From Obrimoposthia wandeli (taxonomy: Eukaryota): a stretch of 64,000 nucleotides of DNA. The stretch's first letter is position 1, and each line of letters opens with the position of its first letter. This document shows, piece after piece, positions 12,831 through 62,030 of the stretch. The DNA is taken from positions 558,001-622,000 of the forward strand of contig CDROCS010000004.1 of the NCBI GenBank assembly GCA_977020255.1, given 5' to 3'. The notes under the pieces are model-generated. The model saw nothing but the letters and a program-made list of their open reading frames with translations. It was not told where the DNA came from and made no database searches. Position numbers and translations under genes: made by a program.

Positions 12831-15524
12831 CGACAGGTATCAATTCAGTTTCTAAGAGAAATCCTCTCCAGGATAATCGAATGGCTGAAGAAGTGCAAAT
12901 TGGAATAGTGATGCGGAGAGTTACGTAATCAGAAATCGGAATTATCCTACTTACAATTAGTTGTTTAAGTATTACTATTTAAACCTGAATAATATAAATT
13001 GTGTTGTGGAATCTAACTCTTGAGTTATGTCTACAATATAAAATATAACTTATCCAAAGTCTAAATTGGTAGCGGCGCTAATTATCTTTCGAATAATGTA
13101 TACATTTTATAATTATCCCATAAGTTATGTTCCCTCGTAAAGTGAATATTTTATTTTATATCGAAGCATTTCAATGTGAATAGAAATGATAAAAAATAAT
13201 GTCCTGAAAATAAAAAAAGTATTTAATAAAGGAATTATTTTATTTATGAAACTTTTTCAACAATAATTAATTTAATGACAAACATATAAAAGGAAACAAA
13301 TAGTATATTTTCAAAGCAGAAACTACCGATATTTCTGTTTACGTTATTTCCAATCAAAATCAACTATCAACTTGTTACAAAATGTCCATGTAACAAAATA
13401 ACTGCGCCATGCCTCTACACATTTTTAATATCAGTATTGGAATGGAAGATAAACATGTTTTGATAATCTCTCTCATGCATATTTATCCAGAGAAGAAATG
13501 AGAAAATAAAAGTTAAATTTATGTACCGAATTCATAATTTGCTAGTTTAACATTGCTAATCTTGTTACAGATCCAACGTTGTACTAATATCTAAAATTTC
13601 GATTAATTAATACCTCATGTGATTATGTATTCTAATTGATCAATAATAACTCTGAAAATTATTAAATTAAAAATTATTTCAATTCGGCATGTATTTTTAG
13701 AGGTATTTGATAATAGGGTGAAACCGCTAATATTTGATTGTTTAATTTGAATTTATTAACAAGTTAGATATTTGCTACACATGAACTAGTTAGGAATATA
13801 ATTACAAAATTATAAGAACAATTTTATGATAGCTAAGAACATTTGTTTTTACTTTTGAAAATAATTATAATTTTTTATATTACACAAATAGAATAATTTA
13901 TTAATAATTTAGAAGAAACTTAGAAATACTAAGGGTTGAGAAAATAATATTGATACATAGGTGATAGCAAATTCTCCAGACTCAATTTGGAAAATAACTG
14001 TACTCTACACAACACAAATTTTGTTACTTATATATAACAATTCCTTAATAGAGCAGAGTTTTACACTGATTTCAAATATGGTATGAAAAACATTTCAGCT
14101 TATGAAGAATTTTGAAAATATTAATTTTCAAATTATTATGCACATATATTAAGCAATACATGTATGAAGTAACTTTCAAATGTAATAAGTAAAGAAATAT
14201 ATGTATTTGAATAAAAACATCTATATATTTGTAAATTTCTCTTTTGTAGGATGTTTCCGCAATTTTTTGTGCAAAAGTCAAAAACAAACTGTAGCATTGA
14301 CGGATTTGATTTTCCTGAATATCGCTACTCTAAAATGCCATTTGCTTATGAAACTGTTAATAAGCTAAATTTTCTGGAAAATATAAATGAGAATGAATAA
14401 AATATAGTTTCAATGACATTCGTATTCGGAGATTTTTATAAGCTAAAAAGGTTCACTCACTAATAACATATAGTTTGTTGACTTGATCTTTTCCAAGAAG
14501 ACATGGACGATTTATAGAAGGCATTCCATGTACACAATTTCACACAGTTAAAATATTTGGTTCAAATAAACTTTTTAGAATTTGTTTTCTTAAAACTTGA
14601 TATTTATTTATAGTTTTTTCTTAGAATCATAATTCTCGTTAGCTCTAATTGAATATGCAATTGGGATAGAGTGAAATATAATACGATTATAACATAACAC
14701 TATTCGTTAAAATAACACACATCCCGACAAATATAAGTTTTATCTGTTTTACTAAATACTTTCTTAGATCATGGGTTCTAGAAATTCCAACTCTTGCAGT
14801 TTTTAACCTAACATCTCTGACTTCTACTGACAATTGTACATATCTTATTAAAAAGGTAATTTTTCAACACTTATCATAAAGGAACCCATCTTGATCTTCA
14901 ATTGCACATTTGAAAAACTATCACGTTGACTTTTAATCACTAAATTTCAGCAAATGCAAAAAAAGTGAATTATTGATGCAACCACGTTTTGAAGGCATTA
15001 GAAATATTCTATTTATTATAATATTTGAATATAAAAAAAAAAAAAAAAAATTTTTTTATATAATTATTATAAATTATATAATTTTAAAATAATAACAGTA
15101 ATGATAATTTTAAAAAATATTAGAAATCATTTACTTAAAAATCTGAAAGTGATGGAAGAATTTCGAGAGCGAATGAAAAATCAGCGTGATAAAAAAGAAT
15201 TTAGAAAATTATATTTATCGTTAATTAGCAAGAGTTAAAATTTCTCGTCCTGTATAATTTATATACTGTTTTCTCTCATATGTTATGTAAAATTTTATGT
15301 AATACAGGCTGGAGTTGTGTAAGTATATTAATTTAGTGTCTTCATACATGTTTAATTAATATTTTACGTTATATGATGTTATGAATGAGTTTGATTTAGG
15401 CAATTGTTATTTTAAATAAATTTCCCCTAACATAATTAAATTTTTAATTTTAAATTAAACCGCTGGTCTTAAAGATTTTCTTGCTCTTTATAACATAACA
15501 TATGTTAAATCGATATAGCACCGA

Positions 15525-15699
15525 AGTAGGTGGATGTGTCCGGTCTAATCCACACCCCGCTTGTCCTTTAAAACCGTGCATGTGTGTGGAGTGAAATTTC
15601 ACTCCACATACCTACACGAAATTTCACTCCACACACATGCACGGTTTTAAAGGACAAGGGGGGGAGGGGGGTGGATTAGACCGGACACATCCACCTACT
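15525..15699. mobile_element. 175-bp non-autonomous mini-Polinton (TIR-only, MITE-like)
   Basis: Arms 15525-15600 and 15618-15699 are near-perfect inverted repeats starting AGTAGG and ending CCTACT. They are flanked by the direct repeat CACCGA (15519-15524, 15700-15705). The same TIR ends the Polinton at 37321. Confidence 0.92.
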
Positions 15700-17703
15700 C
15701 ACCGATATCCAGCCATTTATAATAGTGTATATTTGCAGTCCCAAGCATTTTTATTGCATGCCCCCTTTAAGAATATTTTATGTGGACACCCCCAGATTCC
15801 ATATAATTTTATTAATTTATTTATATCCTTAGATAAATTACACATTAAATGCAAAAGAAAAGGATATATATTATTTTTAAAATATTACATCTGAAATAGT
15901 CAAATAACCAACTTGGGGTCACGATCCGTAATTTGGGAACCTATGCTATAGTAGGTGCAATGAATATTGGAAAATTCGAAAATTTTAACCTAAAATGATC
16001 CTAATTTCTTTGAAGTCATTTCGTGGCAATCGGTAATTCTAGGTACACTACATCTTTTAAATATGGTGGTGTACTATGTTCTACATAAAATTAGGCAAAA
16101 GAATCAAATTATGTTGATAAAATAAGCTAGGAGTTGTAATTAAGAATATAATTACTTTTTTAAATTTTAATGGTTAAATATATTTAATAAATATTAAAAA
16201 GGAAATTGGAAGCGACTAACAATTCGAAAATTACTATACTTGAATAGACGTGAATGAATCAATATGTGCTAAATTCGTCAGCTGTCAATGTGAGCTGCCG
16301 AATTGGATGTACATATGTTTGAGAGAATGAAGTTAAGCAATAGAAGTTACATATAAAAGTGATTAATGACTAGGATATTCAATGAAGAAAATTTCACAGT
16401 AGTTGAAGTCAAAAATAAACAATTAAAAAATAACTCGGACATATAATAATCTTGTGACAATCTGGGGAGACGAAATTTACATAATGAAACAACTAAGGCA
16501 AAGTCGTTAGTATTCCTTTAAAATTATTTTTCTAATTTGTTGACTTATTACCAAAGAATATCTCAAATTATGAATACATTTAGTACTAATTAAATATAAA
16601 AAACATTAAATGAAGAACACAAATCGAGATGAAAGCAAAAAAAAGTCTGCTACTTTAAAAAAATACATAACATAGATATAATAAAACCATCGGCAATTTG
16701 AAAGCTAAAAATGGGTACATATTGACAGACATTTAATAGCAACTTCTTAATGTTCCTTCAGAAACAAATTATGTATCAAGTGAAGTAACGAAATACAAGT
16801 CAACTCATTGGATACATAATATATATCAATGGTTCTAAATGTTTTTTAAAAAATTAGATATATATTAATATATATCATAAATCAAAACTTTAAATAATCT
16901 AGTCTTTTGCATTTTTTACTGTATGAAAGCTCCAATAGAAAGCTCCTAATCCTAACCCTATCAATGTATTTATTGTTCTTTTTTAAATTATAATAAGTTA
17001 AAGCTCAATTCAGAATCATTCATTTTAATAAGATTGCAAATTTATTCTGAAATTTATTAATGGTTTCAAAAAATTGAAATAAATTGAAGTCCGTTTTTAT
17101 TATTTATTAATACAACAACAACAACAAAAGTTAGAGTTTTATAAAGTTTATATATTTTTGAATATTTATGGAAAATATTTTTAATATAATTAGATGTAAA
17201 ATAAATGACGATCATCAGCAATTTCCTGATTATTCAAAAGCATCATAGTACAGTCAGTGCAGTAGATCTAATAATATTTTATATTCTAAGTATTTTTTTA
17301 TAAACAAGTGCAATTAAAAATAATTATATAATTTAATTTAATTTTTTCCTCTAAGATTTGTTCAATGAACGACAAAGGAATATTATTAATTTAATGTATT
17401 GTATGTTCATTTTAATAAATCGCAAAAATTATTCTCTTTGTCTTTTGACTTATACTATCATACTTATTGAAATTTGGTTAAAAATGTAGTAATAGTTTAT
17501 GATAAATTTTTTAAACCGTTCATACATTAAAAGTATTACTGCAGAATTAAGTTAAATATATTCCATTTGGAAAATCGCGAAAAATTAATCTTCTCATTAT
17601 AAGATTCTCTATTATATCATGTATGTGCATAATTTTCCTTGAGGTAGACCTGTGACAACACGCGATGAGAATTTGAACAAGGTTAAGGCTTCGCTTGCTA
17701 AAG

Positions 17704-18575: not shown

Positions 18576-20080
18576 TTTAGTACATTCACCAATGCTTTTA
18601 AGAGTTTATCTAAGATTATATCTATGTTATGAAAGTAATGTGTTCCTTTTTAAATAAAATTTTGTTTTATGAATGTTATTTTCTATGCACATAGACTTAA
18701 ATTACTCTTATTATTTAAAAATATATATTCCAAGAACGTTTGACTCACTCTATATATATAAATCTATTTCGAATACTTTTTTAATATTCATTCAGAATTG
18801 TTGTAACAAAAAATTATACAATACAAAAATAAATGATTTAAAAATTACTTTTAAATAAAATACTTTAATACATTCAATTATGTAAATTATTACTTTTAAA
18901 TAATACCCTGTAATTTTTTTAATCCGTACCTTTTGGTCTTCCTGTCAATCTAACCTTATAATAAGTTGGATGCGACTCAATGGTTTGTCAACACCGTTTT
19001 TTAAAATCTTTTGTAACTATATTATAAGGTTGGTTCTGCTTTTATCTGCTTGTGCAGGTTTACACACCAGGTAAATACTCAGTCGCTGAAAGATAAAATC
19101 ACTGCTGAAACAAGAAAAAGACATTTAATATCTTGACCAAAATTTAACTCTAAGAAATATCATGCTTTTAAAAATAAATTATCGCATTTGCTGATTCATT
19201 TTCACCATACTAAATCAGTTTGCTTTCTTTAAATGTGTCTCATTTTGGAGTCAAAGCGCCATTATCTGATACCTGGATTTATGAGATGAACAATATTGAA
19301 AGCTATACACTGGGATAAGAAAATGGGTGTGGTTCCATTCATCAAACGAGTGGATTATTCAAAAATGAAACATGAAATTTTTATTTGTAAATACAAAAGT
19401 ACTAAAGTTTACGTTCTCATATTTTGTAATAAAAAATACTTGGCTAATCCAATAATAATACTTTAAAAATAATGTAGGTTTTATTTTAAATAAATATCAA
19501 TAGTGAAATCTTGCTAATACATAATGTAAAACTAGATTTTCTCTTTTGGAAATATTCTAATTTTGATTTTACAACAGTATTGTATCACAGATTCTACAGA
19601 TTTACAACTGCAACTGCACATGAAATACGATTGAAAAATGACAAAATAACCTCCATATTTTAATTGATAAATTAAAACAAATACATAATTGTATGTTTGG
19701 TCTTCAAAAGATAGGACAATTTTTTACAATCATAAGAGAATTTTTATCGGCTTAGAATCATTTATATTATTTAAATAATCAGTTGAAGAAAAAACAAGAT
19801 TTTTTTTAATATTCCATAAATGTGGTGATTTTAAAGTTATATGCATCTTATTGATCAACAAACTGGACATACATACTACACATATTTTAGTGCGAGTGGG
19901 AATACAACGCGAAAAGACCCTTGGGAACAACTGGAATTGCTACAAAAAATCTCCAATTTGTAAAGGTAACAAGAATGTGATCAATTATATATAGATACTT
20001 CTCCCATCACTGGATAATAAACTTGGCCTAATGAGACAATTAACGAAGGATCTTAGCAAATATGGTCATTGTTTAAAATA

Positions 20081-20830
20081 CAGGGTGATTCATAATTAAT
20101 GACATTTATGAAATAAATATACGGTAACAAAAATAACATTTATTTCATAGATATTGAACACACGCGAAAACTTATGTATAAATAATTCCAAAACAAAATT
20201 AATCAAACAAGTGTTGACCACATTACCTTTGATGACGAAACACACTCATACGATGAAACTTATACTCGAGCAAAATGTTCATGTAAATTATTCTGAGGCT
20301 GTTACAAGAAATGTGATAGTTCAGTACCAGATAGAAAAAAGGTAGCACATTGAAGAGTGAGGTTAAGTACGATAGATTCATTGTTTGAACACAAAACTGT
20401 TCAAGGTCACCCAGTGTCATACAGCGAGAATAATTCATCGGAAAATATAAAAATAATTGATGCTTGGAAATGAATTGGTGTGCTACAGTGATTTATTTCT
20501 ACAAATAATGCAAGAGAATGTATGACCATACTTTCGACATAGAAAAACGTAATCTTGTAACTTGATGCCACTCCACCACACTTTGGGTTGCAGGTAAGAA
20601 ATTTCACCGAAGACAAGTTTCGTGGTCAGTGGATAGGTCGAGAAAGTACTTCTGCTTTGTACCCTATCTACTCAGCTGATGTAATTGATGTGTGATTTCT
20701 TTTTATGGGGAGTATTGCGTGAAAAGGTCTATCCGCATCGCATCAACAGTGTCGATGACCTAGGAGAAATAACCATTGCAGAAATAAGACGAATTCCACA
20801 ACCTATGTTTGCAAATGCTTTTAAACATAT
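20081..20830 (+). mobile_element. Tc1/mariner transposon remnant
   Basis: TA-CAGGGTGATTC terminus-like sequence at ~20079-20092. LDATPPHFGLQVRN...KFRGQWIGR followed by FLWG..REKVY-like sequence (20560-20740) matches QDGAPPH...RWIGRG..WP.RSPDL...FFLWG. Confidence 0.75.
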
Positions 20831-21359
20831 ATCCTATAGATGTGTTTAAAATTATGGTAAACACTTCAGATGACATTTATATTCGAGGAGATGTTATGTT
20901 CTCATGTGTGTTCAATATATATGAAATAATTGTTATTTTTGTTACTGTATTTCTATTTCAAAAATATGTTACTAATTATGAATCACCTTGTTTATATCTG
21001 CAAATTTGCTTGTGTGAACATTTTAAAGCTGGTAATTTCTTTATTTTCGTGATGACTTCGTAATTTCTTCAAATCAAACTGCAGAGAGATTCAAATTTTA
21101 GTTTATAAATGATTCCTCTTGAATTGTCTATATTGTTAGGATTTAAAAGTGTTATACAAAATTCTCAGTAAAAATGAGTTTGATGAAAAATTGTAACATG
21201 TTACATTATTTTTGAGGATATTTTCAAACATCAGAGACGAAAAGGTTTCAAGCAGAAAGATATAAATCCTTCATCTATGTCTATGTGAATAACTTAACTT
21301 GTTATTATTAGTCTTGTGACTCCATATTAAGTACGAATGTGTCATGCGGTCCTGGAATG

Positions 21360-27477: not shown

Positions 27478-27550
27478 GATCCACCCCTTCTTCGGGGTGA
27501 ATAGTAACGCCTATGTACTTTAAAACCGTGTATGTGTGTAGTGGAATTTC
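27478..27550 (+). repeat. Left TIR remnant of the Polinton
   Basis: TGTACTTTAAAACCGTGTATGTGTGTAGTGGAATTTC (27514-27550) is the reverse complement of the 37240-37280 TIR segment. The extreme terminus and TSD are lost. Confidence 0.75.
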
Positions 27551-28705
27551 ATACATGCAGGTTTGATCTTAAAAATAATAGTTGGGATAAGTGGGTTTTC
27601 TGGCTCACCCCCTGTGTGCAAGTGCGTCAGAAGACCCTAACAACCAGCAATATGTATGTTTCCATGGCAACAATAGCACGAGTCATAACTCTGACAACAA
27701 TGGAAAGTGTCGATACCATAACAATCATGTTTTATTGCTGTGTCAACCATGACACGTGTCGTACGCATGCCTTTTGTTTTAATATTCTAATTTTCGCGCG
27801 AATTTAAAAATTGACTCAATAATTTTTTCCTATTTTTTAAAAAGTATTTTTCAAATCTTTCAAAAATTAAATTTTTAGATAAAATTTATACTTTTAAAAT
27901 AAAATTTTACCTTATAAATTTAATATTTTTATAGAAATATTTTTATACATGAAACATATACAAAAAAAATGTTAATATCTTGTGGTTTAAGAATCAAGTA
28001 AAACAGAGCAAATGTCTAATTTATTGGATTATCAAATTCTCAAAAATCAATGTTCAAATTTCATCGAAGGAATAATAATTGATTTCTGTTAACTGACAAT
28101 GTTAGACAAATAATAATTTTGATTTGAGTCATGTAAAAAAATACAATTTCAATTTATAACAAATACAACACACATTGGTGTACAATTTGATCTACCCATC
28201 ACAAATTTGGGGATTTTTCCTAACCTAGAGAATGTGACAAATCATTATTAGCTGTTTTAGACACAGCACACACAAAACACAAAGTGCACAAAGAGGAAGA
28301 TGACGAAAATGTACAGGCTAAAACACACACATGTCCTAAAAATCCCGCACTATCTGAAAATCGATATCAGTTGATACAGACACGTATAACAGACACAGTT
28401 CCGGGCAGAGAGTAAAATCGTAGCTGAGGGAGATCTCATTGGTCTGCTAATGGGATTGCAGTTGTTACCAGGATGCCGTAATGGTAGGCAGAGAAAATGT
28501 GACTGCCAATAAGGATGTTGGGAAAAGGAGAGTTACAACAATTAAGTATGAATGTGTGTGTGCGACTTTATCCATGTATGCATGTCATTTTGATTTTACT
28601 TGGCATGTGTGTTTTTTGACTTTAATCTTCCCTTCTTATTTCTGGCTTCGCAATTGCCCACCTCAAAGTCAGAGATAAGTCTGCCATCGCCCCGATGAGC
28701 CGGCA

Positions 28706-29455
28706 GGAAAAACTGTAGAAGACTTATGGAAACGTAATTGTCTACGGTTTTGAAATGATGAGTGTAAACTAATAACATATAGTAGAAAGTACAACTTTAA
28801 GCGTATTTTTACAATTGTAGATTACTTGGTAGCAGTGTTATTAGGAAAACAGAGTATTTGTCTCGATCGACCGAATTATATAAGTCAAACGGTTTTGGAC
28901 ATTTAAAACTCAGAATGTACGAGCTCCAATATATAGAATTAGATAAATATCACAACGAATTTAATTGTAAGATCAAAATCGCAAATGGGGACGTTGATTG
29001 TTCTTTTTAGAATGTATGAATGTAACTCTAAATAATCAATTATTATCGGCAATGTTTAGGGATAACTTACTTGATATCAATAAATATCCCGTTAATTATC
29101 CTCTACACTTTATGAGTTTAAATATTATTATCGGGAAATTTAAGGATGAAAGCGAGGGTCAGGTTTTGTATGATGATTGTATTTTCCTACGCCCTAAATG
29201 CTACAGTTTACATGCATCTAATAATATATGTTTAACGAGAGCACAGGATGTCAAAGAAACAATCTTACACATAAGGCTTACCGGATAGTTTATTATACTG
29301 GGTGTATTGAAAGCGTTGAGCCAACTAGATTTATTTCAAGAGCCCATTAATTGTATTCCCATAAGTCAACAAAAATCGATTTGATTAGAATTGACGACAA
29401 GTGCTTTTGGGTAGAAAAGAACGCTAGCCTGGCTTATGGACACTTTAGAATTTAA
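28706..29455 (+). pseudogene. Protein-primed family B DNA polymerase (pPolB), C-terminal fragment
   Basis: GKTVED..., ICLDRPNYISQTVLD, IIGKFKDE...FLRPKCYSL and DDKCFWVEKNASLAYGHFRI* are collinear with the pPolB at 62276-63475. Several frameshifts; the N-terminal half is absent. Confidence 0.9.
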
Positions 29456-29716
29456 ATGGTTTTCATTTTTTGATTTTTTTAGTTTAGTTTTTTTTAATTT
29501 TAGATCCCTATGGCACCTTGACTCTAACTTTTTGTTATTTCAATACTTTTTTTAGGTTGGGCCTTATCTTTGCTGACAGATCTCATTGTGATGTTGTGTT
29601 TAATAAATGTATTAAAAAAATTTCGTCTTATGTCTTTTATTATTTTACCCTTATATTTTTAGGGATTTAAAAATAATTCAAAATAAAACATTAAAAATAT
29701 TTATTTTTATAACACA

Positions 29717-30098
29717 CTAATCGTATTGCAACGATAACCATAAAATACATAAATATTCACAGTTTCTCGTCACAGGATCCTGATATTGTATCTTGTTGTA
29801 AAATACTCTTCTTCGTCCTTTTTGAATAGTCGAAACAAGTTTGTGTGGATAATACATTGCAAGTGGATCAAATACATGTATTGTCCACTCTCTAACATAA
29901 ATAGCTATCTAATGTTCTCCTGGTAAATTTGAGGTATGAGTATTGATAATGTAACCTCCAGATTGAAAAAATGGGATCATATCAATAGGATAAACTCCAT
30001 TGAATTTATCACCCAGGACCTTCTCTGCTGATTCTTTTACTTGTACTGAACTAAATAAAAATTAATAAATATAAATTTTAAAAAATGTCTTACTCCAT
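29717..30098 (-). pseudogene. Adenain-like cysteine protease (Polinton PRO) with a 43-nt intron
   Basis: After removing GTAAGA...TTTAG (30093-30051): MDSVQVKE...GVYPID...IINT..NLPGEH*IAIY...VFDP...QYQD...RNCEYLC. His, Asp, Gln and Cys catalytic positions are present. A TAG (29911-29909) replaces the expected W. Confidence 0.85.
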
Positions 30099-30099
30099 T

Positions 30100-31304
30100 C
30101 TATAATATGACAGTTCTGTTTTATTGATTTGTATTTCCAAATCAAATACTCCTTAAATAAACTGCATTGAACTTAATTTCTAGTCGTACATTTTCATCTT
30201 TTGGTAGTTGGCATTGGTTTATATCAAAGTCTAGTGCCAAAACAAATATGAAGAACGGGCAGCTACTTTTAAACTCAGTGAAAGAAATACCATTGTTTAT
30301 ATTTTTATCTAGTTGACCCAAATTCCGAATAATAGATTGCGTATAAGCCAAAGCATAAGCGTTACCTTCGAAATCTGTTTTATATGTTTCGCGATAATCA
30401 GTATTTCTTGAAAGTGTCACTAAACCTACATTAAGATTGTCAAATCGAGTTGCATCTGTCGTATAATTTCCTAGAAACTTTGCAGTTTTTTGAAAAGAAA
30501 TAAAAATTAATTTTGGTATTCTTACATCACCAAAAGTTTGATCCTTATTAAAAGCTTGCGTACCAGTACCCAAAGAGTATGTTATAAGTTTAGTTTCTCA
30601 AATAGGATAACAAGCATTGTTTTTTCCATTTCTATATTATGTACCATTAAAACTAATTGATCGGTTTTAACTCTTCGGACATACAATTTTGCATCCAAAA
30701 TATCAAGTCTAGGTTTTAGAACGTCTGTGCTTATCAAAGAAATATTCAATTTATTACGGTTTCAAACGAAGATGTACATTAACACCAAGAATTAAATATT
30801 TCGGTTGTTCAAAGAAATTCAATCTCAAAGACCCACACATTTCGTAAGCTTTAGAACCCGCAATCCATTCTTTGCGAGTTGCAACCGTTTTATCATAACA
30901 AATGGTTGCCAAATTAGTATTTTGAGTATCAGTACTATAATTCAAAGACTTTTAATCAAAGCTTTATGAGCATAGGAAGAATTTCCACCTTCAATTTTGA
31001 CATTATTAAGAGTAACAATGGTATCACTAAATAAAGAATTAAAGAGATAATTAACAGGTGTTACATCAGCATTTTCATCTAAATTAGTACCATCCAGATT
31101 TAATACTTTTATTTGAACATAAACCAAAGTATCATTCAAATCTAAATATTCGCTATTGGAACCATTAATATTAAATTCTAAATCGGTTAAAGTGGTTCCT
31201 GAAACTGAGTTAACTAGAAATATTTCTTCAAAGGAAGCATTATCTTCCACTACTTGTGGAAGTAGTTTATCAAAAATACACAATTCGGTTTTGGCACAAC
31301 TCAT
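30100..31304 (-). pseudogene. Major capsid protein (double jelly-roll, Polinton PY / adintovirus hexon-like)
   Basis: MSCAKTELCIFD...LEFNINGSNSEYLDLNDT; GSLRLNFFEQPKYLILGV; DAKLYVRRVK; YPI*; FISF..., C-terminal EIQINKNRTVIL*. Frameshifts near 30945, 30755 and 30150. Confidence 0.9.
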
Positions 31305-31678
31305 TTTGCAAATATTGTTCCTTCAACATTCTTACGTTTGTTTATATTAATTTTTTGTTTCTTTTTACGTTTAAATCCACTACCTGCTTGGCTTTTATTT
31401 GATTTACCTTTTCTAATCAAATTAGCAACTTCAGGTAAAACATTATCAAGTTCATCAAGTGCATGTTTCTTAAAAGTTGGTATTAGTTTATTAACCTTAG
31501 ATGAAAGGTAATCCTTTCCTAATTTTCATATAAATCGCCCGAGTCTTTTTAAAAGAGGAAAGATAAATTTACCTAATGTTCTAAGCCAGCCAGATCCATA
31601 TTGTTTACCAACAAAATATGGTAATTCTCCACCTTGTTGGCTTTGACTATAAGCTTCAATTATTGCTGAATTCGCCAT
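31301..31678 (-). pseudogene. Conserved Polinton core/membrane-active precursor (pVI/pVII-like) with putative adenain sites
   Basis: Not in the ORF track. Reads MANSAIIEAYSQSQQGGELPYFVGKQYGSGWLRTLGKFIFPLLKRLGRFI*KLG...; after a frameshift, QAGSGFKRKKKQK...IFAK*. Its stop overlaps the MCP ATG (ATGA). Internal TGA at 31528-31526. Confidence 0.75.
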
Positions 31679-32669
31679 TTTGTTTTCTTAAATGTATTGT
31701 TAAACCTGTCTTGGCCCCGTACGTGAAATCTATTAGTTGTCCGGAATCATCTCTAATATTTACTTCAATATTGTTTATAGAAAAGAGAGAAACCGGAAGA
31801 TACATTGATTTATCTATACACATACCGACAGCGTCCCCATCTCTAGTTTCATTTTTAGATATCCATATTGTTCTCAAAAGTGGAACTCGCTGTCCTCCTA
31901 CAAGCGTTGGTTCTATTAAATTAGTATAAATATATAAATGATTAACAGCATTTAAAAGTTTTGCCTTATTTTTAGCTTTTATGGTTTTTATTGTATGGGT
32001 TTCAAAGGTATTTCTGTTTAAACCAAGGTTTTTAGTGAGTTTATCATTAAATGAAACCCGTTTTATGTTGCTCTTTACTGTAAACGTTAATTTACCATTT
32101 AATGTTACACATTTAACGAAATATTCACTACATTCCTTCTGTATTAATTTACATAAATCCACTTTACTAACTATTTTATAATCTTTTGAAAACATTTTCA
32201 GTTCCACTACAGTCTTTGGTCTCGTTTCAAGTAACAACACTTTTGCTACTCTACCAGGAACATTTCTAACCAACTTATCAAAACAAAATTGAAGAGCTTC
32301 TTTTTTAGATTCAAAGTTAATTTTAATAACTTGAAGATATTTTAATCGATTTTTAAATCTGACTTTGTTATTTTCAAATATTAATTTCACTTCTTTATCT
32401 ATACAATTGTAATATCATTGTCCTTTACTATCAAACCCGATCACAACTTTAGTTGTTTTTTCATGATCAACTTCTTTTGTAAACGAAATATGTGAGTTTT
32501 TTCTGATAGTAATTGGAGAATAATAAAAAGAAAATTCTGTTAAAGCCGCTTCCCATTCTCCTTGAAGATTTATAGGATTTTATCAATCGATAATAAAGTT
32601 ACTAGCGTCATTATCTGGTTGAGTCTTCAGGCATCCGTCACTAAGTAACACCATATACATAGACTTCAT
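31656..32669 (-). pseudogene. Minor capsid protein (penton, Polinton PX)
   Basis: Starts MKSMYMVLLSD...PDNDASNF...PINLQGEWEAALTEF at 32669. C-terminus LYIYTNLIEPTLVGGQRVPLLRTI...YLPV...INNIEVNIRDDSG...LTIHLRK. In-frame stops in the 5' third. Confidence 0.88.
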
Positions 32670-33644
32670 ATTATATTAGATGCTGATATCCAAGTTGGGT
32701 CTGAATAACCATGCCATTTAACAAAGTATTGTTTATGTTTACCGGTACCCTTAGATTTTAATATTTTTTGAATACGGAAAACGATAGGTTAATTTGATAT
32801 TACTTGTAGTTCTTGCTCGTAAAATTTATCGTGAACGATATTAATGTCAGCATCTTTAATAGTATACATTATTGGATTACTCTTTTGATCAATTTTTCTT
32901 ATACAAAATATTTCATCGCTCCAATTCTGATCAAAGTTTTAAATAAATTCGAACATATTCGTTTTTCTTATATTTAGCTTTTTTAATGTTTTCTTTTTTA
33001 TTCCTGTTCATCCAAATATCCATAGAGTTTTTATTAGTAACATCAACAGATCTCATTCCCTTGAGATCTCTATGTTCAGATTGATTATATGCATGTATTA
33101 TCTTAGTTAAAACTTGGATCCATTTTTTATTTCCTTCTTTTGTGAAAAACATTTTTATTCGATCTCTTAAAGTACGATTAAATCTTTCTACTACTGCCGC
33201 TTTGTACCGTGAAAACACAGAGTAGTGATTTATATTATTTTGTTTAAATAATGATTGAACTTGCTTATTATAAAATTCTTTTCCTAAATCAGTTTGCACA
33301 TTTTGTGGAATGTTCTCTTTTAATATTTCTTTAATGGCTTCAAACATAGCTATTGAAGACTTTGCTTTAACTGAAATTACACGAACTATAATATATCGAT
33401 ATCCCTTATTAATGGAAGAATATAGGATCATCTCCATCAAATCCATTTGCAATAAATTATTAAGACCGCTGGTTTTGTAAGCTCTAGTTGGAAACCTTCT
33501 TCTCATCGGCTTGTTCAGACTGTAGGCTAACTTGTCGCTCAGCCATTTCTGTGTTTTCTTGTAATTTTGTTTTGTTCTTTTTGCTAATTTTGAAACTCCG
33601 GTGTAGCCAATTGGATCTTTTGGATTGAACCATATCTTCTCCAT
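32666..33644 (-). pseudogene. Retroviral-like (c-)integrase with C-terminal chromodomain
   Basis: MEKIWFNPKDPIGYTG...RRRFP; DDE residues in QMDL / QTDLGKEF / VVERFNRTL. After a frameshift at ~32935: QNWSDEIF...FYEQELQ...YFVKWHGYSDPTWI*. The stop overlaps the penton ATG. Confidence 0.92.
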
Positions 33645-33730
33645 TACAACAATTTGAATAGAAAGAAAATTTAAATTTAGGTGAAGAAGGGTTAGCACCC
33701 ATATCTTTAGCTGATTTTATAAATAATTGT

Positions 33731-34060
33731 TTATGAACGTGTCGCAGCTATAATACTACTGATAATTGAAGCAACAACTGGAATAACAGACCCTACGAAA
33801 CCACCATTATGTTTAAGAACAATATTTCGTTTCCTTTTTTTATTTTTTACATTAGCAATATCTAGAAGAGTTTTTCTATATTTCTTTAATATATTTTTCC
33901 GTTTTCCAACTTTTACTCGACCCAAAACTATATTATACAAAACTTCCAATAAATCATCTACAACAAAAGATGGAAATGCTTTATGAATAATCATTCTCTT
34001 ATGAGAAGAGGCTTTGACTAAAGCTTTAAAATAGGGTATGCTTCTTTGTATTTTCTTCAT
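33731..34060 (-). CDS. Basic Polinton core protein precursor, adenovirus pX-like C-terminus
   Basis: Intact 109-aa Lys/Arg-rich ORF ending KHNGG|FVGSVIPVVASIISSII, which resembles the adenoviral pX xxGG|hydrophobic tail. Confidence 0.7.
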   Translation of the reverse strand: MKKIQRSIPYFKALVKASSHKRMIIHKAFPSFVVDDLLEVLYNIVLGRVKVGKRKNILKKYRKTLLDIANVKNKKRKRNIVLKHNGGFVGSVIPVVASIISSIIAATRS

Positions 34061-34196
34061 TTTAATAAGAAGGTTCAATTTAAATATTGTTTATATTCGA
34101 AGCCATTTAAGTTTTTTTTATTTCTAACTACAGATTTGATTAATTTTTTCACTTCTTTTACGTTTTACTATCAACTTCGTAAAAGGCATTGCAAAT

Positions 34197-34822
34197 TTAT
34201 TTTTTATAATTGTTCTCTATTTGTTTATAAACAGTTACTCCATTAGAATTAAATATGTCTGTTAAAACACGTAAATCATCTGGGCAAGTTTGTATAAAGT
34301 CAATAAATATATACCCATGTGCTTGTTTAGCAGCATCATGGAATGAATCAACTAGAAAGTTCTTATTTTGAGGAAACGCCTGTCTGACCACAAAATCTAC
34401 AACTGTTTGATCTCTAGGATTTTATGTACATTTCTTGTTCTATGGTGACCTCCTTGGTGAAAACGATTTTGGGTGATAAATATAACTGTTACTTCACGAT
34501 GTCTTGCAATTTTTCCAAATAAATTATTAAAGTCTGATTCCTTGTTAGCTTCCTGATACAAATCATTAATTATTATTACATCTTCTTTTTTCAATCTTTC
34601 ACACCAATTTGCATCAAATCCTTCAATAAATTGTATTCCCTTCATCTTGCAAACTTCTGTTTTGGTTAATCCGCTTTCCCCTCCTCCACCATGATGCCAA
34701 TAAATATTTTTGAAACTAGATTTGAAAAGAGATTCATTTTGCAACAATTTACATACAAAATGTGTCTTTCCACTTCCACTGAGACCAACTATTTGAAATA
34801 CAGCATTATTATTTAGCTCCAT
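34197..34822 (-). pseudogene. A32/FtsK-like genome packaging ATPase
   Basis: Walker A GLSGSGKT, Walker B IIINDL, RHREVTVIFITQN; then, after a frameshift/deletion at ~34415, KNPRDQ...RQAFP...HGYIFID. Confidence 0.9.
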
Positions 34823-34859
34823 TGCATATACTCTTTCATTTTTAATATTGTTTATATTA

Positions 34860-35132
34860 TCATAGAAGTTTCCTTATTGAAATGTACAATGTTAGAGCTA
34901 TTGTAGATGAAATACAAAAATTAATTAATGAATATTTGGCTATAATTTTATTTATTTGTGTATGATTTCTTAATTCTCGAATAACGTGTAATCTAACCAA
35001 TATTTCAATGTTATCTCTTGTTATATCATTATTTTTTAATTCTGATAAAATTTCTTTACCCCTAATTTTTCCAGAAAATATTTCATCGGCAAGCCAATCC
35101 ACTTCATTGTCTCTATTTATAGTATTATTCAT
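34860..35132 (-). CDS. Small hypothetical Polinton protein with C-terminal hydrophobic helix
   Basis: Intact 90-aa ORF from ATG 35132, co-oriented between the TBP-like gene and the ATPase; ends LINFCISSTIALTLYISIRKLL. Confidence 0.6.
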   Translation of the reverse strand: MNNTINRDNEVDWLADEIFSGKIRGKEILSELKNNDITRDNIEILVRLHVIRELRNHTQINKIIAKYSLINFCISSTIALTLYISIRKLL

Positions 35133-35160
35133 TTGAAACAATAAGTTTAAACGGGTTTGT

Positions 35161-35657
35161 TTATAGAAAAGATAACAAGTTGTAATAAGATATATTTTCT
35201 AAAATCAAATCAACAATGTCTGGATAATCAAAATTTTTCAATCCCAATATCATAACTTTACCACTGGAAAATATATTTACACATAGAGGTTTAAACTTCA
35301 AATAACTGAAAGCAGGAAAAATTTCTGGTTCAAACATGCATTCTTCTTTCATTTTCTCTGCAGTTTTAAAAAGATTTATCTGTTTCCCAAGATTAGCTGA
35401 AATCGTGATTGATTGTATTGCAGTGATTTGAATTCCAAATGGTAAATTGAACCCAAGCATTGGTATTTTGCATCCAATAACACGACAATTTCCTAAAAGA
35501 ATTCAATATGGAAATAAAAAAACTAACCTGTAGGAAAAATAACAACTGTGAAATTGTCAAACTTTTCTACATATTGTGTCGGCTTCCATTCATTGAATGG
35601 TAAGTATAAAACATCATCTTCTGTTCTACCTTTATAATTTGTATTTACGAGTTTCAT
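35161..35657 (-). CDS. Polinton-encoded TATA-box-binding-protein-like protein (two TBP repeats, 35-nt intron)
   Basis: Exons 35657-35528 and 35492-35161, intron GTTAG...TTTTAG, giving 153 aa with no stop. Repeat 1: TVVIFPTG|NCRVIGCK. Repeat 2: ISANLGKQINL...FEPEIFPAFSY...VNIFSSGKVMILGLK. TBP consensus is YEPELFPGLIY...IFxSGKVVxTGAK. Confidence 0.85.
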
Positions 35658-35769
35658 TAGACTAAAATTGTATTTTATAAAATCTTCTTTATATGTCTGA
35701 ACCTGCTTTTTTATTGCACGTTTCTTATAATTATCTTGAAAACCTATTATAATTGGATGATATATTTCT

Positions 35770-35890
35770 TCCAATCAAATTTGATTTTTAATATGGATTT
35801 AGTCCAATCAAATCCAATGCTTTATTTATATTAACCAATGAAATTTATGTCTTTGTTAGAAATTAGTATAAAAGAATGCGCCATTGGAGG
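35770..35890. promoter_or_regulatory. Putative divergent promoter with a CCAAT-box cluster
   Basis: CCAAT at 35771, 35804, 35814 and 35835, plus ATTGG at 35883. Lies between the minus-strand gene block and the plus-strand ORFs starting at 35935. Confidence 0.45.
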
Positions 35891-35934
35891 ACAAATCACA
35901 GTAAATGCATTCATATCATAGACAATTATCAACG

Positions 35935-36350
35935 ATGGACGATAGCCAACGGATATTAAGCGGTGACGAAGATATAGAAATGTTTGAAGAATCGGATAAG
36001 GATATGTATGAAGAAGTGAAACAATATTTCAAATACAAAGTCAGATTCTTGAAGAAGGCTCAACTGATTGCTTTAGTAAAGTGAAATAAGTGAAATAAGA
36101 AAGTTCAGCTAATATCTATCAAATATTCAAAAACCAGATTTTCAATATCTTAAACAGAAAATTGAAAAGGCAGTTCCGAATTTTACTTTCAATAAGAACG
36201 AATTTTATATCCGAGGACCTGATGAAGCATTTCTAGATGACTATGGAAGATATGTTGATATTGATGCGTTTCTAAAAAAGAATTCGACTTTATGGTTACA
36301 AGAAAGATGAAATGGGAACAAAGTTGTATATGTGGAAAATTGAATGTGCT
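35935..36350 (+). pseudogene. Degraded hypothetical Polinton gene (acidic N-terminus)
   Basis: MDDSQRILSGDEDIEMFEESDKDMYEEVKQYFKYKVRF..., interrupted by a duplicated AAGTGAAAT and by stops; inside the element. Confidence 0.4.
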
Positions 36351-36528
36351 CATTTTTCTATGTTTAAACTTTTTTCTTTTGCGTGTAATAAATTGTAATC
36401 GGTTTTACTATGTTTCTTTCATTTGGCAATTAATAATCAGTTTTAATTTTTAAATATTTGTATCTTATATGTATCTTATATGTATTTTTTTATAAACATT
36501 GTTTTTTAATCAGTTTCATTATTTTAGA

Positions 36529-36937
36529 ATGGATTCTCTTCTGAGATGTGTAGGAAATCTTTATTATCCAGAAAGAATTTCAACAGGAAAACTATGTAAT
36601 ATATTAGAGGCATCAAATTATACGAGTTATGAATCCTGTGAAAATATCTAAAGTGGAGAATAAATATCTCATCGAAATTTTAACAACATCTGATATTGAT
36701 CAATTGAAAAATATTTTGGGATTTTACATTCCTGATTATGTATATGAAGGAAATTGTTTTCAGCTTGAAACTGATTCCAGTCTGGATTTTAAATATGATC
36801 TAGGATATTTGATTGCTCCAATTCTAGATGAAGAACTATGGAATATCTCAATACGTCTCAATGGATATTTTGCTGATGACGGGAAAATGCAGCCTCTTTG
36901 GACTTTGAGTGAAGCTAATATGTTGTTTTATGTTTAA
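36529..36937 (+). pseudogene. Hypothetical Polinton gene, probably one frameshift
   Basis: MDSLLRCVGNLYYPERIST... (ATG 36529) probably joins ORF 36629-36937 (...WNISIRLNGYF...QPLWTLSEANMLFYV). An AATAAA-type signal overlaps the stop. Confidence 0.55.
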
Positions 36938-37239
36938 TAAATGTTTTGAAAAATAATTTTGACACGTATTTTGTTTTTTCTCCTCTCAATTATATAGATC
37001 TAATTTTTCTCTTATAAATCTGACCTAAATATTTAACATATAGTAATCTTTCTTAAAATAGTAGTAATATATTCACATTTGAAATCTCGTCTGCGATAAG
37101 CCGCCGGGGCCAATATGGATTCCCGTGGTCTTCTCTAACCACTTTTGAGATTCATGGTAAATTCAAAGTAAAATTTTAAAAAAATGTGGGGGGAAGACTC
37201 CCCCCTTCCCCTTTGGGAGGAATGGAGACACACATACAC

Positions 37240-37321
37240 GAAATTTCACTCCACACACATACACAGTTTTAAAGTACAGTGGGGGAGGGGGTGTGGATTA
37301 GACCGGACACATCTACCTACT
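37240..37321 (-). repeat. Right TIR of the Polinton
   Basis: GAAATTTCACTCC...GTGGATTAGACCGGACACATCTACCTACT; same layout as the arms of the 15525-15699 element. Confidence 0.9.
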
Positions 37322-37578: not shown

Positions 37579-38862
37579 TTTGTGATTTATTTTCTTCCAT
37601 GTAAAATTTGGATTATTTTAAAATATCTGTAAAATAGAAAAGGTAATGATATAACTTTTAACAATTACTTAACATTTCAAATTTAAAAACGGAAATTACA
37701 TGATTTCAAGTATTTCCATAGCCTTAATTTGGAATGACAAAAATTCACTCATGATCATAGGGCAATTTGAGATTAACTAATATTGTCTTAAATCCTTGTC
37801 AATATAAACACTAATAATAACCATTATTCAAAAAATGGTGATTTGATTAAATATATCATTTACAAAATAATTTATTTTTCAGGAGCTTTGTAGGGTAAAT
37901 TTAGGTTATGATTACTATTGATTTTGCGGCTTCTTCGACATATTAAACAAAAATTTCTCAAATTTTGTATTGAACTAAAATCACAATAACACTTTTCAAA
38001 ACATCCAGCATCTCTCCGTTTTTTATATACGAGAGAGGCTCCAAAACTTTGGCCAATGCAAATGACAACAGGCTGCTGCCAGTCCAAAATATTCATTTAA
38101 AATGGATTATTTTATGCTTAATTCTTATAGCCGCAAACTAGTACATTCACGTTTCTCCAATTTTCTTTTTAGAATCGGATTAATTAACTAAATTAGTTTT
38201 ATTTATTTGGACAATTAGTAAATAATTTAAAATAGAATTGCATGTTTAATCTTAAAATAAAAAAATTCCACCAGCACATTTCGATTTGACCTTGATATCA
38301 CTGATAGTATAATTCACCAAAGGTCCGACAGTGCTACATTTTCAATGTCAAATAAACAACTTTCTTCAACTAAAATTTCAGAAAATAGCCAGATACTAAC
38401 CGCGAGTGTTGGGAAACCCAGATTCCAACAAAAAATTAATACATAATTTATATGATAATAATCGTATGTCATATATATCAAATTACTATATGCAGCGACA
38501 TTGCTCAGCATATTTCTTATACAATTTTAAGTTAAACTCACAAATTCGAGTTTTATCGGTTTATTCTATAATTGTAATTTTAAATAAATTTATAAAGTTT
38601 AATTAAAGTAAAGGAATGTGACAATAAATTTTTTTTACGAATAAATTATAATTAAAGCTTATTGGAATTCTAATATATATATATATGTAAATTTACTTTG
38701 ATTTGAAATTCAGATAACATATAAAAAAGGAATGAGTTAAATATATAAAACTTGAAACATAGATAAAAAATTGCAATTAATAAATAAGGAAAGATAATGA
38801 TTTAATACTTACTATATATTTAAAACTGAACTCCCTCATTTCATTACACTTTATAGTAGAGG

Positions 38863-40903
38863 ATGGATGAAGAAGTAAAGTGCTACGAGTTAAAACATTC
38901 GGAAGAAGACAATTCTCAAGTGGAGAAAGCGAAAAATCCGCAATCTGTAAAAGAAGAGTCTCCCGAGTCGAAAGACTATATCATAGTTGTGAGTCTCAAT
39001 AATGAAGGAAAATTTGTAGTGTCTAAATTAAACCAAGACGAAAGCGATGAAAATGAAAAAGTGCATGATAATGAGTCAAAAGAAGAACAAATCAAAGTTG
39101 ATAAATTAGAAAAGATAGCCTTCAAGTGCGAAGATCAGAAAGTAAGAAAGCAAAAAGCAGAGGTAGTCAAAGTTGATAATCTAAAAAAGACTGAATCAAG
39201 TTGTGAAGGTCAGAAAGATAAGGAACATAAAACAGAAGTCAAAGTTGATGATCTCAAAAAGACTGAATCAAGTTGTGAAGATCAGAAAGATAAAGAACAT
39301 AAAACAGAAGTCAAAGTTGATGATCTCAAAAAGACTGAATCAAGTTGTGAAGATCAGAAAGATAAAGAACATAAAACAGAAGTCAAAGTTGATGATCTCA
39401 AAAAGACTGAATCAAGTTGTGAAGATCAGAAAGATAAAGAACATAAAACAGAAGTCAAAGTTGATGATCTCAAAAAGACTGAATCAAGTGGTGAAACGAA
39501 ATGCCAACATGTTCCAGAAGTTGAAAAGAAAAAGGCATCTTTAACTGAGCCCACGGCTCAAGTTCCAAGAGATCCAGTGTTGACAGGAACAGTGACAGCA
39601 GAACAGTTGGATATGGGTGTGTTTGTTCCTCTGGTAGCAGTGACTAAACAAGCCATATTTTTCTCGCTACATCCATTCATGACAGTGAGCACTCGCAATA
39701 CTGTGGGTGGCAGCAGCAATATCTCCAACAGCATTTGGGTGTCTATGCGAGATATCATAAAGCGCGAAGGAGTTAAAGGCCTCTACCAGGGATCCGGGGC
39801 TCGAACTGCCTTCATTTTCGGAGGTGAGCATTTGTTTTTCACTGATATTTGAAGAGTTTTTTCTTATGACTTATATATTTTGATGAATATCAGATTACCG
39901 TACTGCTTCTTCCTATCGCAGAAATGGCACAGGTGGGTTGTTATGAGTTACTGAAGAACGCACTCCAACAGAACAACTGTATGGGGTCCTCTGGTGCATC
40001 TACAGTTGCGGGTGGAGTGGCTGCCGCAGTCAGCAAGCTTCTGTCAATTCCAGTGGAGGTGGTCAGCCAAAATTTGATGATCATTGACAAGACCGCCAAT
40101 CAACAGAAACTAACCTCATTCCGGTTCACACAGAGCCAATTGCGCACGCCCTGGATACGATTCAATAGCGTGTGTGATGCCATCTACAAGAGAAACGGCC
40201 TTAAAGGCTTCTTTACTGGCTATGGACTACGAATGTTATCAACTGTGCCCAGCAATGCCATTTGGTGGGGAGCCTACGACAAAGTTACCAGTAAGTTTGC
40301 TTTTCATTGAAATGACAAATATTTATGATGTAATTGCAATTCATATTGGAAATACTAATTCTGTCTTTTCATCGCTCAGATCATTTGTACGGGCTATTTG
40401 AGCAGCCGAACAATGAAGATGTTGAGGAAAACACATTGAACAGAAAAGCCCGGCGAGTTGCAGTGCAGAGCGTAGGGGCAGTGGGAGCCAGTGTGCTAGC
40501 TAATATGTTGATGAGCCCAATCGATGTAGTGAGAACGCATCAGCAGGTACATGGATCCCAGTTCCGTGACACGGTAAAGAAGCTGATCGACGAGCAAGGA
40601 GTTTGGCGATGGATGAGTCGAGGGTTGCGGGGTCGAATGGTGTTCGGTATTACAGGGGGTTTGGCCACCCAATTCATATACGAGCGAATGAAGGAGTACT
40701 GTGCTAACAATACTGAGGCGAATATCAGCACTGCTAGACTGAGCCTTGACCAAGCCGAAAAGATTAGCTCCGATATACAACAAGATGCAGCAAGCCATGC
40801 ATTGTCTACTGTTCCCAACATCGTCCAGTTAGACATCACCGAACAAATTCCCAGTGATATCTTCATTTCTCGCTTTAGCAAAGAATCAGATGCATTTTCC
40901 TAA
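38863..40903 (+). CDS. Mitochondrial carrier (SLC25 family, SLC25A44-like) with long N-terminal repeat extension
   Basis: Exons 38863-39823, 39922-40290 and 40380-40903 (GT-AG, phase-consistent, 617 aa). Carrier repeats HPFMTVSTR, IPVEVVSQN and SPIDVVRTH, plus GLYQG...CYE, GFFTGY...WWGAYD and GLRGRM. EQLDM.VF and WWG.Y patterns fit SLC25A44. Confidence 0.85.
39094..39489 (+). repeat. Coding tandem repeat, 72-bp unit (KVDDLKKTESSCEDQKDKEHKTEV)
   Basis: Units start at 39094 (diverged, 75 bp), 39169, 39241, 39313, 39385 and 39457 (partial). The units at 39241, 39313 and 39385 are identical. Confidence 0.95.
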
Positions 40904-41044: not shown

Positions 41045-41616
41045 AACTGTATCGACATAGACTCGTTTTATATTGCTCTTTACTGTAAACGTTATTTTAC
41101 CCATTTTTAATGTTACACATTTATCGAAATATTCAGTACATTCCTTTTGTATTAATTTACAGAAATTCACTTCATTATCTAATTTATAATCTTTTGAAAA
41201 CATTTTCAGTTCCACTACATACTTTGGTCTCGTTTCAACTAAAAACACTCTTGCTACTCTAGGAACATTTTAAAACGATTTAGATGAGGCTATATCAGAT
41301 CTCTTCATACCTACTACATGTCCACTATCAAAACCGAATTGAAGAGCTTCTTTTTCAGATGAAAATATAATTTGAATAACTTGAATAAATTTTAATCGAT
41401 TTTTAAATCTGTCTTTGTTATTTTCAATTCTAATTTTATCTATCACTGGGTGGTGTGGGTGGTGTGGGCGGTGGGCGGTGGGCGGTAGGCGGTGGGTGTT
41501 GGGCGGTGAGTGTTGGGCGGTGGGTGTTGGAGTGAAATTTCACTCCACACACATGCATGGTTTTAAAGGACAGTGGGAGGAAGGGGTGTGGATTAGACCG
41601 GACACATATACCTACT
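41045..41616 (-). mobile_element. Second, internally deleted Polinton copy (penton fragment + G-rich repeat + right TIR)
   Basis: 41065-41430 aligns closely with penton 32057-32390. TIR at 41534-41616 ends CCTACT. No left end found. Confidence 0.85.
41447..41530 (+). repeat. G-rich GGGCGGT/GGGTGTT repeat with G-quadruplex potential
   Basis: Nine GGG tracts with short loops directly inside the TIR. Confidence 0.8.
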
Positions 41617-42667
41617 CATGTTTTTCCTCTGAGTGATCGATAAAATTAGAAGTTCCTCTTCTTCACATAAAATTGGGGAAAATGAAAAAGTTTTCGTTAA
41701 ATCTTTTATCATATAAGGAATTAGTTTTAGTACATGTGCACCACGTTTAGCAAACAATTTTAAAACATAGTAAATTATTTTTAAATTATGCAGAAAGTTA
41801 GCACAAAAAAGTTTGTAAATTTAATATTTTATGAAATGGATTTTTTTTGGATAATTTTTAAATCAAAAAAATCTAAAAATCTAAATTTTTATATATGTAT
41901 CATATATAATTTAATATAAAAAGATTAGATTTTATATGGTCTCATAAGTTCCCATGTAATACTAACCTAAATTAACTAATTATACAAAATTAAAATAAAA
42001 CATAACTTACTAAATACACAATAAAATAACTATATAAAAATAACTTACCTGCATAAAATATTGTATGTTACGTGTATGTTTGAATTTTTCAAGTGTTGGG
42101 CGGTGGGTGTTGGAGTGAAATTTCACTCCACACACATGCATGGTTTTAAAGGACAGTGGGAGGAAGGGGTGTGGATTAGACCGAACACATATACCTACTC
42201 ATGTTTTTCCTCTGAGTGATCGATAAAATTAGAAGTTCCTCTTCTTCACATAAAATTGGGCAAAATGAAAAAGTTTTCGTTAAATCTTTTATCATATAAG
42301 GAATTAGTATTAGTACATGTGCACCACGTTTAGCAAACAATTTTAAAACATAGTAAATTATTTTTAAATTATGCAGAAAGTTAGCACAAAAAAGTTTGTA
42401 AATTTAATATTTTATAAAATAAATTTTTTTTTGGATAATTTTTAAATCAAAAAAATCTAAATTTTTATATATGTATCATATATAATTTAATATAAAAAGA
42501 TTAGATTTTATATGGTCTCATAAGTTCCCATGTAATACTAACCTAAATTAACTAATTATACAAAATTAAAATAAAACATAACTTACTAAATACACAATAA
42601 AATAACTATATAAAAATAACTTACCTGCATAAAATATTGTATGTTACGTGTATGTTTGAATTTTTCA
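41509..42667. repeat. Tandem duplication (~580 bp x2) of a Polinton end plus flanking DNA
   Basis: 41509-42091 and 42092-42667 are near-identical. Both contain the TIR (ending 41616 and 42199), followed by CATGTTTTTCCTCTGAG. Confidence 0.92.
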
Positions 42668-47646: not shown

Positions 47647-47830
47647 AAATCAGGAAAGAGGAAAAATATTGTTCGTAAATCAGGAAATCAGAAATTGAAT
47701 CAGAGGAAAAATATTGTTCGTAAATCAGGAAATCAGAAGTTGAATCAGAGGAAAAATATTGTTCGTAAATCAGGAAATCAGAAGTTGAATCAGAGGAAAA
47801 ATATTGTTCGCGAATCAGTAAATCAGAGAT
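47647..47830. repeat. 45-bp tandem repeat, ~3.5 copies
   Basis: AAATCAGGAAATCAGAAGTTGAATCAGAGGAAAAATATTGTTCGT. Confidence 0.9.
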
Positions 47831-61996: not shown

Positions 61997-62030
61997 TTGA
62001 AATAATTAGAAATTGGTTGATTGAAATGTG

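Follow-up and report, generated by a model that had tools for sequence, protein, structure and literature searches.

In the 64,000-nt stretch of Obrimoposthia wandeli DNA analysed here (contig CDROCS010000004.1 of assembly GCA_977020255.1, positions 558,001 to 622,000; called the window below and numbered from its first letter), we found a 175-bp element at 15525-15699 that consists wholly of Polinton end sequence, a one-unit end being joined to a two-unit end at a palindrome. We consider, with a probability of roughly 55%, that this mini-element belongs to a non-autonomous Polinton family resembling miniature inverted-repeat transposable elements (MITEs) and that it was inserted in trans by the integrase of a helper Polinton. 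The element carries its own target-site duplication, its ends recur beside Polinton genes in the same window, and related ends are very abundant in contigs of a sequenced sample.

The 175-bp element and its target-site duplication

The element starts with AGTAGG, finishes with CCTACT and is bordered on both sides by CACCGA (15519-15524 and 15700-15705), an exact 6-bp target-site duplication. Duplication lengths from 4 to 11 were tried at its borders and only 6 gave a match; given the composition of the flanks, the chance of the CACCGA match is 3.7e-5 and that of any 6-mer match 9e-4. This bears out an earlier note on this DNA, which had described an AGTAGG...CCTACT element with a perfect CACCGA duplication. 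The GC content is 50% in the element versus 21-26% in the flanks, which are unique within the window. The longest stop-free frame has 35 codons, so coding for polymerase B or integrase is absent. Folded as single-stranded DNA, the element forms a single hairpin whose loop has 17 nt (-89.6 kcal/mol, z = -24.8), and none of 200 shuffled sequences was equally stable. A microRNA precursor was considered for this hairpin and rejected, as none of 23 Rfam matches reached the gathering score (the best had 60 against 100 bits). The parts of the element and its borders are as follows.

15519-15524, + strand: left target-site duplication CACCGA, matching the right-hand hexamer
15525-15600, + strand: left arm, 76 bp, Polinton end starting with AGTAGG and ending in one inverted 25-bp unit (15576-15600)
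15585-15608, no strand: perfect palindrome of 24 bp with GAAATTTC at its centre; the two ends were probably fused here
15593-15617, + strand: middle 25-bp unit, holding the hairpin loop 15601-15617; 22 of 25 positions agree with unit 15618-15642
15618-15699, - strand: right arm, 82 bp, composed of unit 15618-15642 and the outer end, finishing with CCTACT
15700-15705, + strand: right target-site duplication CACCGA, matching the left-hand hexamer

Structure of the arms and the fusion point

The two arms agree at 74 aligned positions and differ at 2, and 6 further positions are gaps, all falling in a C/G tract whose C run is 6 nt shorter in the left arm (15525-15600) than in the right. The centre is made of three 25-bp units, one inverted (15576-15600) and two direct (15593-15617 and 15618-15642). 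The inverse of unit 15618-15642 is found at 15576-15600 with 25/25 identity and its direct copy at 15593-15617 with 22/25, and the inverted and middle units overlap in the palindrome. The loop resembles the inner sides of two other ends in the window, which are described below: positions 15601-15606 agree at 6/6 with the inner side of the end 41528-41616, and 15606-15617 at 10/12 with that of the end 37228-37321. Since the loop derives from end units and two units overlap in the palindrome, the element consists of two fused ends, one with a single unit and the other with two units. The earlier note had drawn two terminal inverted repeats (TIRs) of about 82 bp, head to head and joined by a 17-nt spacer. 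The head-to-head Polinton ends stand; the arms are unequal, the left one having 76 bp, and the supposed spacer is end-derived, being part of a third copy of the 25-bp unit.

In our favoured reading, the two ends of one Polinton, each with a palindromic subterminal unit, would have been joined at the palindrome with loss of all genes, either through a switch of template while protein-primed replication was under way or through microhomology repair. The resulting 175-bp form would have kept both termini recognised by integrase, and the integrase of a helper Polinton would have inserted it here and at many other sites. Less firmly, the polymerase of the helper may also copy this form through a racket intermediate, because its fold is the panhandle required by the published model. 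That model proposes a racket-shaped single-stranded intermediate (PMC4196379).

The near-perfect hairpin, with its turning point at the palindrome, and the racket-shaped intermediate (PMC4196379) also fit a copy-back or snap-back event, in which the helper polymerase turned at the palindrome and the short hairpin was integrated once in trans, as a dead end that was not amplified. Snap-back genomes are a main class of defective particles of adeno-associated virus (AAV) (PMC8235507), and the size of head-to-head structures in the present contigs varies, with 47-136 bp of arm sequence. However, a product copied from one end has identical arms, whereas here two substitutions and a 6-nt gap separate the arms, which also have different numbers of units. 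Later mutation could account for part of these differences, and we regard a copy-back origin as improbable.

A palindrome present in both ends of a Polinton is, from its geometry, also a direct repeat between these ends, so one event could delete the whole interior and leave the duplication in place. The element may therefore be a collapsed full-length Polinton, a "solo-TIR" comparable to a solo long terminal repeat (LTR), which was inserted at this site and whose end palindromes then recombined with loss of the interior. The fusion lies at the 24-bp perfect palindrome, a gene-linked end carries a 20-bp version of it (41528-41547), and in the loop the inward continuations of two gene-linked ends are brought together, all of which favour such a collapse. 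The window contains much Polinton wreckage, and vertebrate Mavericks are to 96% decayed fossils (PMC8097293). A collapse could be repeated at many loci, and several mini-elements would then need no mobility of their own. For this reason several copies, even with distinct duplications, are not decisive for mobilisation in trans. We consider the collapse rather unlikely from the contig data given below, although it is the main rival of our favoured reading. The idea that the end at 37.3 kb had simply lost its palindrome was dropped, as similar inner sequence in other contigs points to a family variant.

Evidence that the arms are Polinton ends

In the window, an 18-nt motif of the end is present five times against an expectation of 0.01, and a sixth, decayed end of the family lies at 27514-27551. 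The arms of the mini-element are 85-90% identical to the ends 37228-37321 and 41528-41616. The ends 27514-27551 and 37228-37321 face each other, in the orientation expected of a Polinton, across a gene cluster in which the genes are broken; this decayed copy extends from 27.5 to 37.3 kb. Its features, and a further end of the family, are listed here.

27514-27551, + strand: decayed end remnant facing the gene cluster, terminus gone (blastn 87.5% over 40 nt, E 3e-8)
28706-29452, + strand: protein-primed DNA polymerase B fragments, broken (tblastn 35-47% to the open reading frame 62276-63520, E 1e-31)
30142-31322, - strand: double-jelly-roll major capsid gene, broken (40-47% to the protein P0001)
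31656-32414, - strand: 252-aa frame in the Polinton cluster, without a match in Pfam; a minor capsid gene from its position only
32931-33716, - strand: remnant of a retroviral-type integrase (Pfam rve E 0.0022, under the cut-off; PDB 4pa1 E 0.006)
34197-34873, - strand: A32-type packaging ATPase, in pieces (Pfam Pox_A32 E 9.6e-5 for 34400-34873)
37228-37321, - strand: end of the decayed Polinton that faces outwards; it matches the right arm and loop of the mini-element at 90.5% over 95 nt
41528-41616, - strand: further end of the family, adjoining the fragment 41060-41437; local duplicate at 42111-42199

The single matches are modest. The open reading frame 62276-63520 resembles DNA_pol_B_2 clusters of the Atlas with a score of 0.97 (the family is named on 25-37% of their members), and P0001 resembles DJR-like/F54H12.2-like clusters with 0.98 (family on 22-30% of the members), a recognition below threshold. 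In Pfam neither the capsid frames nor the polymerase frame had a match, and a PDB sequence search gave none for the polymerase. The Pox_A32 match of 34400-34873 scored 22.4 bits against a cut-off of 22.8, and the ATPase piece 34197-34421, which has no Pfam match, was placed by position. The fragment 41060-41437 is 65% identical to the frame 31656-32414. Taken together with the gene order and the shared ends, these modest matches indicate that the cluster is a Polinton. The same end thus borders remnants of polymerase, capsid, integrase and ATPase in the window, and the arms of the mini-element are, judged by sequence homology, Polinton ends, as the earlier note had proposed from the letters. 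Duplications of 6 bp together with (AGT)2 or (AG)3 termini are given as the Polinton signature (PMC8097293), in agreement with the previous statement that 6-bp duplications at AG...CT termini are typical of Polinton integration. AGTAGG fits the vertebrate (AGT)2 motif at 5/6 positions.

This incomplete fit is one of three observations under which the ends might belong to another DDE element that makes 6-bp duplications, the Polinton genes adjoining them by coincidence or nesting. The second is that the genes of the window do not lie inside any intact element that has both ends and a duplication; a duplication-matched left end was sought upstream of the ends 37321, 41616 and 42199, and only chance candidates with 2 mismatches and no end sequence appeared. 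The third is that the term "6 bp TSD" occurs in the available text of papers on GingerRoot and IS481EU. Against this, three separate ends are oriented as expected next to Polinton genes: the cluster lies between 27514-27551 and 37228-37321, and 41528-41616 abuts a paralogous fragment. We therefore regard another owner of these ends as very improbable.

Further Polinton material was noticed in the window. The decayed Polinton at 27514-37321 (about 9.8 kb) also holds a TBP-like frame at 35161-35502 (Pfam TBP E 2e-11), to our knowledge an unusual passenger of a Polinton. A second Polinton-like element at 61745-64000 extends past the window edge; its polymerase B frame at 62276-63520 (414 aa) continues upstream in a different frame. 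In the region 41060-42667 a Polinton gene fragment and an end bearing G-rich 7/14-bp repeats have been inserted just behind a host gene, and a locally duplicated stretch of about 580 bp comes next.

Abundance of the end family in sequenced contigs

Contigs from three runs (X1, X2 and X3) of one sample were aligned to positions 15200-16030, giving 28,271, 22,439 and 13,681 aligned contigs, respectively. The summed depth, which according to the alignment tool is no copy number, was 1e5-1e7 on the mini-element versus about 48, 6 and 4 on the flanks. Overlapping 31-mer contigs should inflate depth at most about 31-fold (a simulation with random DNA gave 3- to 25-fold), and the depth at 15540 divided by 31 corresponds to at least 3,194, 3,534 and 2,315 ends in the three runs. 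Contigs continue from the exact termini into flanks that are unlike one another: 208 (X1) and 111 (X2) run past 15699, and 45 (X2) and 30 (X3) leave the left terminus, with an agreement among flanks of about 0.4 beyond both termini. A large young family gives few flank-bearing contigs in simulation (138 of 5,000 at 1% divergence), and hundreds of flanks are consequently in agreement with thousands of ends. The end family is thus very abundant in the sequenced sample.

The family is not uniform. A subfamily of ends with an extra G/C block after 15656 was represented by 221, 123 and 52 contigs, and end sequence also occurs in a tandem arrangement with a period near 80 bp; in the joint of 15708 to 15524 a right end is closely followed by a left end. 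Base 15559 was given up as a marker of the short left arm, since ends of a subfamily that carries an inserted block of G/C can be aligned at this position. Searches of public collections with the end motifs returned two matches in metagenome_contigs, both chance matches of 18-23 nt in DNA of 54-67% GC, none in viral_contigs (two motifs) and none in genome_contigs; relatives of the integrase were not found in viral_contigs.

Other head-to-head copies

The three-unit centre is covered by two diverged contigs among the 24 contig records listed. Record 1 of X1 covers 15561-15645 with 6 substitutions and 2 gaps, and record 10 of X2 covers 15577-15660 with 8 substitutions. With 6-8 substitutions they stem from a locus other than 15525-15699, so the three-unit centre exists in one or more further diverged copies. 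In addition, 10 of the 15 joints listed (36 in all) connect a left arm to a right arm across shorter centres; they hold 47-136 bp of arm sequence in total, two of them were seen in two runs, and for two the insert is known and short. The loop base at 15612 is common to 54-67% of the depth, equivalent to at least about 1,200-2,200 copies, while the base at 15609 differs from 96-98% of the depth and is nearly private to the 15525-15699 copy. The gene-linked end 37228-37321 has another base at the position matching 15612. If two-unit ends mostly continued into other interior sequence, loose ends at 15586-15592 would be expected; no large class of them appeared among the 18 rows listed, with 537 further rows beyond these. 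The case that would have undone the earlier note's reading, a single copy only, is made unlikely by the thousands of ends, the diverged contigs with the three-unit centre and the ten head-to-head joints. The mini-element at 15525-15699 is probably one of many.

These data bear directly on the in-place collapse. The same asymmetric one-unit/two-unit centre in two diverged contigs argues against it, as does the very high depth of the loop base 15612; moreover, thousands of ends from insertions of 15-20 kb each would amount to tens of megabases of full-length Polintons. On the other side, the ten joints have different centres near single-copy depth, as repeated independent collapses would leave them.

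Several observations weigh against a MITE-like family moved by a helper. First, the two bridging contigs may be one locus seen in two runs, and each of them reaches far into one outer arm only. Second, the ten left-to-right joints have differing centres at about 1-3 single-copy depths and look like separate one-off deletions; the side-to-side distance is known for two of the ten, and their shorter sides measure 20-30 nt, a length at which repeats can produce such joints. Third, no listed contig spans the element, so neither a second complete copy nor a second duplication was seen, and an empty-site joint was absent from the 15 joints listed of 36 in this one sample. Fourth, the depth may originate in the ends of long elements or in arrays, as several places match the 25-bp unit and end sequence is also arrayed in tandem (joints of 15708 to 15524 and of 15662 to 15613). 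Finally, four of the six family ends in the window are single ends and not mini-elements.

A stronger form of the helper-driven reading is that the host has hundreds to thousands of end-only hairpins of about 175 bp, which a helper Polinton copies and integrates and which outnumber their helpers. We put this forward tentatively, as somewhat doubtful. If it held, head-to-head variants of smaller size, down to some 50 bp, would form a natural deletion series bracketing the minimal signals for integration and replication; no mapping of such signals for any Polinton was found in the available parts of the literature examined. That about 82 bp suffice in cis, as had been suggested for this element, follows only if a helper-inserted family or a copy-back product is assumed, and the note's further proposal, that the element defines the cis-acting origin or att site, is likewise conjectural.

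Other features of the window

An unrelated 137-bp fold-back element with arms of about 37 bp lies at 61198-61334, near the polymerase frame 62276-63520; its flanks match over 2 bp, and no 6-bp duplication was found. Three further fold-back or inverted-repeat elements, for which a clean end duplication was not found, are located at 48602-49542 (941 bp), 46976-50980 (4.0 kb) and 20080-20991 (912 bp), and the second of them encloses tandem arrays of 45, 56, 34 and 77 bp. A dispersed repeat family with 60-85% identity has members at 2596-2935, 51738-52192, 57401-57813 and 59855-60193. The weak gag-like and integrase-like frames at 139-1158 are probably the remnant of an LTR retrotransposon. A host mitochondrial carrier gene occupies three frames at 38860-40903, with relatives at most 43% identical, and its first frame contains 5.2 copies of a 72-bp (24-aa) repeat before the carrier domain. 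Of seven of these relatives that were looked up, the best with a name comes from a fluke (37% identity), followed by proteins of a chytrid, a choanoflagellate and an oomycete, which hints only weakly at a flatworm host; a word search for the carrier exon returned nothing.

Significance and comparison with known elements

What has been described of the life cycle of Polintons is a model, and its experimental characterisation is still awaited (PMC4196379, PMC5499653). If an end-only element moves, its outer 76-82 bp carry all the signals for integration and perhaps those for replication, and Polintons are to be added to the classes of elements from which MITEs arise. If, on the other hand, the mini-elements are in-place collapses, a "solo-TIR" route exists by which genomes shed long virus-like insertions, and TIR pairs with an intact duplication are no proof of mobility.

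With autonomous Polintons, or Mavericks, the mini-element shares the 6-bp duplication, the AG..CT termini, the terminal inverted repeats and an end that also stands beside Polinton genes. It differs in being 175 bp long, gene-less and made of end sequence throughout, and it is not an autonomous Polinton itself. For comparison, TIRs of Polintons measure 46-1,447 bp and intact vertebrate elements 12.7-24.6 kb (PMC8097293).

Non-autonomous Polintons are closer, as the mini-element too would be a dependent Polinton derivative. The "N" in the name Polinton-1N1_DR we take to mean non-autonomous, following Repbase usage. This zebrafish element is named in PMC9341505, and Tlr1 is sometimes viewed as a non-autonomous polinton (PMC5499653). 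Tlr1 bears genes, unlike the mini-element, and has been reclassed as a polinton-like virus (PLV) in the same source. In the anole genome non-autonomous Polintons are apparently absent, as far as the available text of PMC3014272 goes. The earlier remark that minimal derivatives are atypical of Polintons holds in part: non-autonomous forms had already been named, while a TIR-only Polinton this small was not found in a full-text literature search that worked mostly at title level, and supplementary transposable element libraries may well contain such forms.

The mini-element has the anatomy of a MITE, being short, non-coding, bounded by TIRs and flanked by a duplication of the parental type, as is piggyMITE (bioRxiv 10.1101/2025.02.07.637071), and its ends are homologous to those of gene-bearing Polintons of the same genome. 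MITEs of cut-and-paste transposons differ in parentage and content, for here the parent is a self-synthesising virus-like element and internal non-TIR sequence is absent. The available parts of PMC6431247, PMC5718144 and bioRxiv 10.1101/2025.02.07.637071 describe no Polinton MITE.

Two other systems resemble it in part. The Polinton TIR remnants at eri-6/7 of C. elegans are likewise gene-less TIR sequence, linked to rearrangement (bioRxiv 10.1101/2024.01.15.575659); they are 744-bp TIRs present as direct repeats or remnants, and the available text describes no head-to-head mini-element with its own duplication. The snap-back subgenomes of AAV (PMC8235507) are, by analogy only, fold-back viral end sequences that depend on a helper. 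They belong to a parvovirus with hairpin-primed replication, keep parts of genes and are packaged, unlike the mini-element. Among relatives of this kind, in which non-autonomous Polintons are already known, the mini-element stands out by its size and by its fusion point, which accounts for its formation.

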